Positions 15,623 to 16,018 of a stretch of 64,000 bases of DNA are shown here, one piece after another. The notes under the pieces are model-generated. The model was not told where the DNA came from, made no database searches, and saw only the letters and a program-made list of their open reading frames with translations. Each line of letters starts with the position of its first letter. The first letter of the stretch is position 1. This stretch comes from Alloascoidea hylecoeti. Lineage: Eukaryota. The DNA is taken from positions 1-64,000 of the forward strand of contig BCKZ01000018.1 of assembly GCA_001600815.1 (NCBI GenBank), given 5' to 3'. Made by a program: the position numbers and the translations under genes.

Positions 15623-16018
15623 TGTTAAAGTTCAAAGTGCCTGTTCTCCCAGTTGCGCCAAAAAGCCAATCGACTCATTAGTGAACTGTTCTAAGAGTGT
15701 AATATATATCCAACACACCCCCCAACCTTAGGCAGGTCACTTTACTAATCGCCATATCTGCTCACCCCCGTGATCTTGCGGGTTTCGGACTTCTTGCAGA
15801 CTGACTCGGACATTTTACTTTCGGGCCATTTATGCGTTACCCTACTAAGCCTCAACTAGACTGATGTAAACTACCGTCCTACGGCGGACTCGAACCTGAT
15901 GCCTCTCGTGGCGGCGCCGCTACCATGTTAAAGTTCAAAGTGCCTGTTCTCCCAGTTGCGCCAAAAAGCCAATCGACTCATTAGTGAACTGTTCTAAGAG
16001 TGTAATATATATCCAACA
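15623..16018 (-). mobile_element. TRIM (terminal-repeat retrotransposon in miniature), complete, non-coding, 396 bp
   Basis: Identical 93-bp direct repeats 15623-15715 and 15926-16018 (TGTT..AACA ends), 5-bp TSD TTATT on both sides, PBS TGGTAGCGGCGC at 15925-15914, purine-rich PPT GGTTGGGGGGTG abutting the 3' LTR, 210-bp internal region. Confidence 0.95.
15886..16011 (-). promoter_or_regulatory. Putative Pol III promoter of the TRIM: TATA (16011-16003), A-box TGGCGCAACTGG (15963-15952), B-box GGTTCGAGTCC (15896-15886)
   Basis: Good matches to tRNA-type A and B boxes, with starts 67 bp apart; the TATA begins 48 bp upstream of the A-box. Function is inferred. Confidence 0.6.

Follow-up and report, generated by a model that had tools for sequence, protein, structure and literature searches.

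A miniature LTR retrotransposon of a budding-yeast-like fungus with a candidate RNA polymerase III promoter divided between its terminal repeat and its interior

A 64,000-nt stretch of DNA from Alloascoidea hylecoeti (contig BCKZ01000018.1, positions 1 to 64,000, hereafter the window) contains at 15623-16018, on its minus strand, a complete terminal-repeat retrotransposon in miniature (TRIM), a non-coding long terminal repeat (LTR) retroelement of 396 bp. The element is one of a recently active, multi-copy family. It carries an A-box-like motif in its LTR and a B box in its interior, the two box types of the type 2 promoters used by RNA polymerase III (Pol III), and from these motifs we consider it an even call that the genomic RNA of the TRIM is made by Pol III from a promoter of this type. 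The complete picture, in which a budding-yeast LTR retroelement would run on Pol III from a promoter split over the LTR/interior junction, with only the 5' LTR of full copies active, is one that we put forward more tentatively.

Anatomy of the element

The element is bounded by two direct repeats of 93 nt each, the 5' LTR at 15926-16018 and the 3' LTR at 15623-15715, which are 100% identical and spaced 303 nt apart. Both read TGTTGG...TTAACA on the minus strand, with the TG..CA tips typical of LTRs. A 5-bp target-site duplication, AATAA, flanks the element on this same strand, with its upstream copy at 16019-16023 and its downstream copy at 15618-15622. Between the LTRs lies a non-coding interior of 210 nt (15716-15925), with 54% G+C and 20% T in a window of 31% G+C. 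A primer-binding site (PBS), TGGTAGCGGCGC, directly adjoins the end of the 5' LTR (15914-15925), and a purine-rich polypurine tract (PPT), GGTTGGGGGGTG, abuts the 3' LTR (15716-15727). No open reading frame of at least 85 codons was found in 15623-16018, indicating that the element is non-coding. We take the first 8 nt of the PBS to be those of the tRNA-iMet PBS of Ty1 and Ty3; the PBS presumably implies an A1:U72 acceptor end and, with it, the initiator tRNA as primer. The two LTRs, the target duplication, the PBS, the PPT and the non-coding interior bear out the original prediction of a miniature LTR retroelement. Short TG..CA repeats, small size without coding capacity, a PBS and PPT in place, a target duplication and dispersed copies are together the features of a TRIM.

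Promoter-like motifs and their chance expectation

In type 2 promoters, TFIIIC reads the B and A boxes and places TFIIIB upstream of the A box, and transcription starts about 18-20 nt before the A box. All the corresponding motifs of the element lie on its own strand, the minus strand of the window. The B box GGTTCGAGTCC, at 15886-15896 (interior nt 30-40, past the PBS), is an exact fit to the type 2 consensus GGTTCGANTCC and the single exact occurrence in the window. The A-box-like motif TGGCGCAACTGG occupies LTR nt 56-67, that is 15952-15963 in the 5' LTR and 15649-15660 in the 3' LTR, the latter without a B box downstream. It fits the pattern TRGCNNARYNGG and was likened to the consensus TRGCNNAGTGG, which, as well as the A-B spacing that type 2 promoters tolerate, we take from general knowledge. 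From the A box to the B box we counted 67 nt start-to-start, with 55 nt between them. Further upstream in the LTR, at nt 8-16, a TATA-like stretch TATATATTA (16003-16011 in the 5' LTR, 15700-15708 in the 3' LTR) could be a TFIIIB/TBP site, lying about 30 nt upstream of the predicted start at LTR nt 38. A run of five T (T5) followed by GG stands at LTR nt 52-56, about 14-19 nt past this start. Its copy in the 5' LTR (15963-15967) would have to be read through by the predicted Pol III RNA, and its copy in the 3' LTR (15660-15664) is a candidate Pol III terminator that would set the end of the R region.

A recount by hand found the positions originally given for the TATA-like stretch, the T5, the A box and the B box to be right. 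It was likewise confirmed that the interior contains no run of four or more T, the two T5 of the LTRs being the sole such runs on the element strand, and that the B box follows the 5' LTR only, the A box being part of the LTR and the B box of the interior. As the LTR itself has no B box, a complete promoter is lacking in the 3' LTR and in every solo LTR.

The chance expectation of the boxes was obtained as an analytic zero-order estimate at the element's own composition, for patterns that were defined after the sequence had been seen and in a large scan. An exact B box in the 293 sense-strand sites has a probability of 2e-4 and an A-like box 35-100 nt upstream of it one of 6e-3, which jointly gives 1.2e-6 per element. 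In the window as a whole, the B box with at most one mismatch was found once (0.19 expected) and with at most two mismatches 15 times (19.7 expected), the sole exact match being that of the element. The A-box pattern was found three times (1.13 expected), and two of these three are the two LTRs. A T5 among the roughly 15 sites between the predicted start and the A box has a probability of 0.011, or 0.066 at the composition of the window. That the box-like motifs have arisen by chance in a GC-rich interior and have no function is favoured by the choice of patterns after the fact, by the rare coincidences that any scan over many windows will meet and by the lack of a tRNA-like fold. It has to be set against a joint probability of about 1e-6 per element and against an orientation, order, spacing and T5 position that all fit, and we consider this explanation very improbable. 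Even after a generous correction, the arrangement of the A and B boxes is unlikely to be a coincidence.

Absence of other tRNA likeness

Searches for a structured RNA gene around the boxes were negative. With an E limit of 10, Rfam matched neither tRNA nor 5S in 179 nt of the element region and yielded no relevant family in 4 kb; across the full window, no family reached gathering score. ARAGORN reported no tRNA in the window, and at its default and 90% thresholds the element, too, was without a call. When the threshold was lowered to 70%, ARAGORN called a 'tRNA-Ser' across the LTR/interior junction, which we rejected as noise because the same setting produced 217 calls in the 64 kb. A 5S-derived identity and a hammerhead (retrozyme) identity were discarded as well, as no such Rfam match was obtained. 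Because no other tRNA likeness is present, the boxes stand as isolated islands, as expected if only a promoter function had been kept. Two lone boxes in the right order, orientation and spacing, as they are also known from tRNA-derived SINEs and from the Helenus elements compared below, suggest that promoter function is what persists.

Copies of the element in public DNA

The element's words were located in six public DNA runs from three studies, three of them runs of one organism and three wood-decay metagenomes. The 11 runs that the search returned included no RNA run, from which nothing follows about expression. Contigs of four of the six runs were aligned to 15400-16250; the summed depth of these contigs is not a copy number, and ratios drawn from it are rough. 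In run X1, the depth was 21.9 for the single-copy flank, 757-875 for the interior and 6,840-16,168 at single LTR positions; in run X5, the corresponding values were 8.38, 164-255 and about 3,200-3,350. These depth ratios suggest that the genome holds roughly 20-40 interiors and a few hundred LTRs. A 217-nt contig of run X1 (depth 719.6) showed no difference to the element, and a 333-nt contig of X3, one of the metagenomes, showed one. The match to these contigs of other public runs confirms the element sequence. The loose ends found at the LTR edges agreed poorly with one another (agreement 0.55-0.67), and many differing flanks were seen in all four runs, indicating that most LTRs are solo.

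The copies vary little. At LTR nt 39, both LTRs of the element (15677 and 15980) have the same letter, which is carried by at most about 3% of the family depth; a rare letter common to both LTRs is expected if the two were made from one RNA by reverse transcription. Few variants reach 5% of the depth anywhere, from which we conclude that the family is young. No variant of at least 5% of the depth falls in either box, but copies are near-identical throughout, and this result is therefore uninformative on conservation.

Two other LTRs of the family were found in the window by blastn. A solo LTR of 91 bp at 24277-24367, on the plus strand, is 95% identical over 85 nt (LTR nt 9-93) and is framed by TAACT at its two ends. 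The second LTR, older and 5'-truncated, lies on the minus strand at 18849-18915 and covers LTR nt 27-93 at 90%. LTR nt 73-93 are invariant across the four LTR sequences of the window. The ATG of a frame of 91 codons, for which Pfam gave no match, stands at 24383, 15 nt downstream of the solo LTR.

The aligned contigs also contained diverged relatives. A TRIM sub-family, represented by contigs on 15708-15873 with depths of 88.6 (X1) and 21 (X5), differs by 17-18 letters and by small deletions near 15780-15790; its alignment ends at 15873, and the B box lies just beyond. In a third variant (depth 30.1), the B box is covered and unaltered, with differences at 15874, 15903, 15911 and 15913. Scans of the metagenomes with the LTR end plus PBS gave no match. 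The 22-nt A-box core gave two, which we rejected as chance matches in unrelated, GC-richer DNA without surrounding LTR sequence.

Proposed Pol III cycle and its alternatives

From the observed anatomy, motif positions and multi-copy state, and from the PBS and LTR tips shared with a probable autonomous partner described below, we infer transcription, termination and mobilisation in trans as follows. One type 2 promoter would be formed by the A box, located in the U5 part of the LTR, and the B box, located in the interior just beyond the PBS, so that TFIIIC would bind B and A at the 5' LTR-interior junction only. TFIIIB would be set near LTR nt 8-16, the TATA-like stretch, and transcription would start near LTR nt 38 (about 15981), some 30 nt after that stretch. 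The T5 at nt 52-56 would be leaky: partly read through in the 5' LTR, it would end the RNA in the 3' LTR, at about 15660. The predicted product is an RNA of about 320 nt with a terminal redundancy R of 15-19 nt, which would be enough for first-strand transfer, and the LTR would be divided into U3 (nt 1-37), R (nt 38-56) and U5 (nt 57-93). A leaky T5 within R would thus be the counterpart of the retroviral poly(A) signal, skipped near the start and obeyed at the opposite end. Both the 3' LTR and the solo LTRs, which number in the hundreds, would be inactive, and proteins encoded by a Ty1/copia-type element in this genome would copy the RNA in trans, with initiator tRNA-Met as primer.

The original prediction carried the caveat that the same T5 follows the predicted start. 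It does, but the difficulty is smaller than had been feared, since R needs this T5 and a T5 is leaky. R must be present at each of the RNA's two ends, so the 3'-end signal has to sit downstream of the start within the LTR. According to PMC9278858, five T are the minimal terminator of S. cerevisiae Pol III and give intermediate release, whereas six T are efficient; a T5 can thus be both read through and used. The same source reports that an upstream hairpin strengthens weak Pol III terminators in S. cerevisiae. A hairpin before the 3' T5 was considered as such an aid and rejected, its predicted energy of -4.3 kcal/mol being not above that of shuffles (z 0.18 to 1.09).

Several points weigh against transcription by Pol III, and some of them favour a conventional TRIM of RNA polymerase II (Pol II). 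The RNA of such an element would start past the TATA-like stretch of the 5' LTR, its cleavage and polyadenylation would take place within the 3' LTR or beyond it, and the boxes would be a captured tRNA-like relic or have some other role. We regard this alternative as possible, if on the doubtful side. The TATA-like stretch lies in the tip TTGGATATATA with which the LTR starts and which is the same in the probable autonomous, and necessarily Pol II, partner, so that no Pol III explanation is needed for it. The letters of the LTR presumably also fit the Pol II 3'-end signals of S. cerevisiae, with a TATATA efficiency element, A-rich and U-rich stretches as they are generally known for yeast, and Pol II, too, could run a cycle in which R is similarly short. 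The A box ends in GA instead of GG in both older LTRs of the window (..CTGA in the solo LTR), the closing GG being thus missing, and one of the two (18849-18915) has T4 for T5; the boxes are not uniformly kept. With a T5 and GG this near the start, many Pol III transcripts may abort. The interior is T-poor (20% T), and the absence of runs of four or more T between the two T5 (P = 0.55 at element composition, 0.12 at window composition) is therefore weak evidence. The predicted RNA of about 320 nt showed no extra structure when its fold was compared with shuffles (z = -0.08). Finally, most known TRIMs are Pol II elements. In Kojima 2024 (PMC10886601), most of the TRIMs described are without a Pol III promoter and are termed TRIMp2. 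A Pol II TRIM, however, leaves the exact B box and the well-spaced A box unexplained, and a relic in which just these two boxes were intact, with all other tRNA likeness gone, would itself suggest selection on the boxes. Moreover, in an LTR of 93 bp, activator sites would have only the 7 nt before the TATA stretch to occupy.

Another explanation, which we think unlikely, would be that the boxes bind TFIIIC and maybe fire Pol III, but that a very short RNA to the 5' T5, or none, results. Full copies would then be extra-TFIIIC-like sites, with a role in chromatin or in Ty-type insertion, and the replicating RNA would be made otherwise. An exact B box is, from general knowledge, the main determinant of TFIIIC binding, and this explanation would also accommodate the T5 and GG shortly after the predicted start and the presence of three family LTR copies within 9 kb of window sequence in which no tRNA gene was found. 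This clustering, however, amounts to three copies in one window, and the element would draw no evident benefit from such sites. In addition, T5 release is only intermediate in S. cerevisiae (PMC9278858).

Two features of the predicted Pol III RNA may be mentioned here. Its predicted R segment GAGUCGAUUGGCUU (LTR nt 38-51; 15968-15981 and 15665-15678, minus strand) can form G-U pairs with a second copy of itself, and in the predicted fold both ends of the RNA pair. A role in cyclisation or dimerisation is conceivable, but the pairing may also be meaningless, since the fold as a whole is no better than that of shuffles.

A probable autonomous partner

At the left end of the window, positions 1-528 of the minus strand are probably the 5' end of a Ty1/copia-like autonomous partner of the TRIM, an assignment that follows from structure, not from homology. 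An LTR-like end of 226 bp, TATTGGATATATAG...CCCAACA, occupies 303-528, and directly after it, at 291-302, stands a PBS made of the same 12 nt as that of the TRIM. An open frame of 118 codons (2-355; three of them with N) starts at an ATG at 355 within the LTR, runs through the PBS and continues past the end of the window. A frame that starts in the LTR and crosses the PBS is the arrangement of a Ty1-like gag. The frame matched no Pfam family at E up to 10, and a comparison with longer proteins found it no homologue, none of the 44 candidates having an E of 0.001 or below.

The LTR of the TRIM and that of the partner have in common the 11 nt of TTGGATATATA at the start and AACA at the end. Beyond these tips, their similarity was not significant, the local alignment scoring 33 against a shuffle mean of 29.3, a score reached by 55 of the 300 shuffles. 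An origin of the B box from the sequence that follows the PBS in the partner was tried and rejected: the interior without the PBS scored 21 against 16.6 (26 of 500 shuffles reached this score), and its first 60 nt scored 10 against 11.3 (892 of 1000 shuffles). The first 528 positions contain several N, and on this strand the start of the LTR contains the end of a host-like frame. Insertion of the partner may have altered the 3' end of this host gene.

Relation to known elements

Ty1 has TG..CA LTRs starting TGTTGG, 5-bp target duplications and a PBS starting TGGTAGCG directly after the LTR. The element resembles Ty1-type elements (Pseudoviridae) and their mini-derivatives in its LTR start, its 5-bp duplication, its TGGTAGCG PBS and its G-rich PPT, the Ty1 side of this comparison being general background. 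It differs from Ty1, which is transcribed by Pol II, by its lack of coding capacity, its 93-bp LTR and its boxes of the kind found in Pol III-gene promoters. With SINEs (short interspersed elements) derived from tRNAs, it has in common that it is non-autonomous and has internal A and B boxes and a decayed tRNA fold. SINEs, in contrast, lack LTRs, a PBS and a PPT, and it is the machinery of non-LTR elements (long interspersed elements, LINEs) that mobilises them.

LTR elements with Pol III promoters are on record. The original prediction had regarded a tRNA-type split promoter as new for a yeast TRIM. The novelty is narrower than this might suggest, because TRIMs with tRNA-derived A and B boxes are known (Helenus, Kojima 2024, PMC10886601); the splitting of the boxes and the budding-yeast host are the parts that we did not find described. 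PMC10886601 distinguishes three Pol III LTR lineages under the proposed name TRIMp3: Cassandra in plants, with a 5S-type promoter, Helenus in fungi, animals and one plant, with a tRNA-type promoter, and Ajax in nemerteans, again with a 5S-type promoter. Among these lineages, transcripts validate Cassandra only, and Pol III transcription of Helenus is unvalidated (PMC10886601). Our literature search returned no budding-yeast TRIM, no TRIM with a Pol III promoter in this group and no split A/B arrangement; most subscription journals, Repbase and the supplementary Helenus family tables of PMC10886601 were outside its coverage. If the element is indeed transcribed by Pol III, what is new would lie in the position of the two boxes on either side of the LTR/interior junction and in the host group.

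The likeness to Helenus is considerable (PMC10886601). Helenus elements too are short, non-coding LTR elements with a PBS and a PPT and with tRNA-type A and B boxes on the sense strand. Those of fungi have 5-bp duplications and Copia-type partners, the partner of our element being only probable. Their LTRs outnumber their interiors, for instance 529 to 144 in one rust family, and in TRIMp3 elements generally, as in this TRIM, the LTR is unlike that of the partner. The size of 396 bp lies inside the Helenus range of 311-1263 bp, and the 93-bp LTR is shorter than one example of 120 bp. There are also clear differences (PMC10886601). The Helenus LTR has a recognisable tRNA-like sequence with both boxes inside it, so that both LTRs carry the promoter, whereas our element has only the A box in its LTR and no tRNA likeness. 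Most fungal Helenus elements have an anticodon-loop PBS, in contrast to the 3'-end-type PBS seen here, and their hosts are Pucciniales and a few Agaricomycetes, not budding yeasts. Cassandra RNA, like that predicted for the element, runs from the 5' LTR into the 3' LTR, where it ends, and has a redundancy of 18 bp compared to the 15-19 nt predicted here. Cassandra differs in its type 1 promoter, which is derived from 5S rRNA and lies wholly in the LTR, in its plant hosts and in its size of 565-860 bp (PMC10886601). The element is thus a TRIM and neither a Helenus nor a Cassandra as these are defined, since its LTR contains no recognisable tRNA- or 5S-derived sequence. By analogy, it may work like them.

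If this is the case, the element would represent a third, independently evolved and structurally distinct Pol III-run LTR cycle after Cassandra and Helenus, in the host group where Pol III and Ty biology are easiest to test. Yeast genetics could then be applied to the export, the Ty-type Gag packaging and the reverse transcription of an uncapped, non-polyadenylated Pol III RNA, and the system would also address the minimal length of R and how one T-run is skipped at one end and used at the other. The roughly 20-40 full copies would add Pol III/TFIIIC sites to a small genome, which would bear on chromatin boundaries, on replication-fork pausing and on the targeting of those Ty-type integrases that seek out Pol III genes. 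Should transcription by Pol III turn out to be wrong, the element would still be a clear and abundant TRIM in a budding-yeast-like genome.

The window and its neighbourhood

The G+C content along the window is 27-34%. It encodes a Spo14-type phospholipase D, an OPT transporter, a ferric reductase, a Gpr1/Fun34/YaaH protein, the ribosomal protein L32e and others, proteins that indicate that the window comes from a budding-yeast-like fungus. Its coding density is low for a budding yeast, with 12 frames of at least 120 codons in 64 kb, and several frames fit part of a Pfam family only, such as ALO at 3902-4339 and isochorismatase at 13308-13829. The low density and the partial frames may be due to introns, to pseudogenes or to the draft quality of the sequence, which has N's near the start.

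The surroundings of the TRIM are repeated elsewhere in the window. Between 15476-19818 and 44985-52758, blocks of 40-92 nt with 75-90% identity (families D4 and D6-D12) follow one another in the same order, about 26-34 kb apart, and these linked blocks look like an old segmental duplication. The paralogous segment lacks the TRIM, and an empty site near 49.5-49.8 kb was sought. This candidate was rejected: the segment aligns up to 15571 and again from 16413, and not across the insertion point, the divergence of the copy near 49.6 kb being too great for a clean empty site. Two further repeats were noted in this part of the window, a tandem repeat of the 20-bp unit TATTTCTAATAATTAGACTT with about five units at 45955-46054 and a block of about 140 bp that is duplicated at 50989-51128 and 52618-52758, the two copies being 1.63 kb apart and 85-90% identical.

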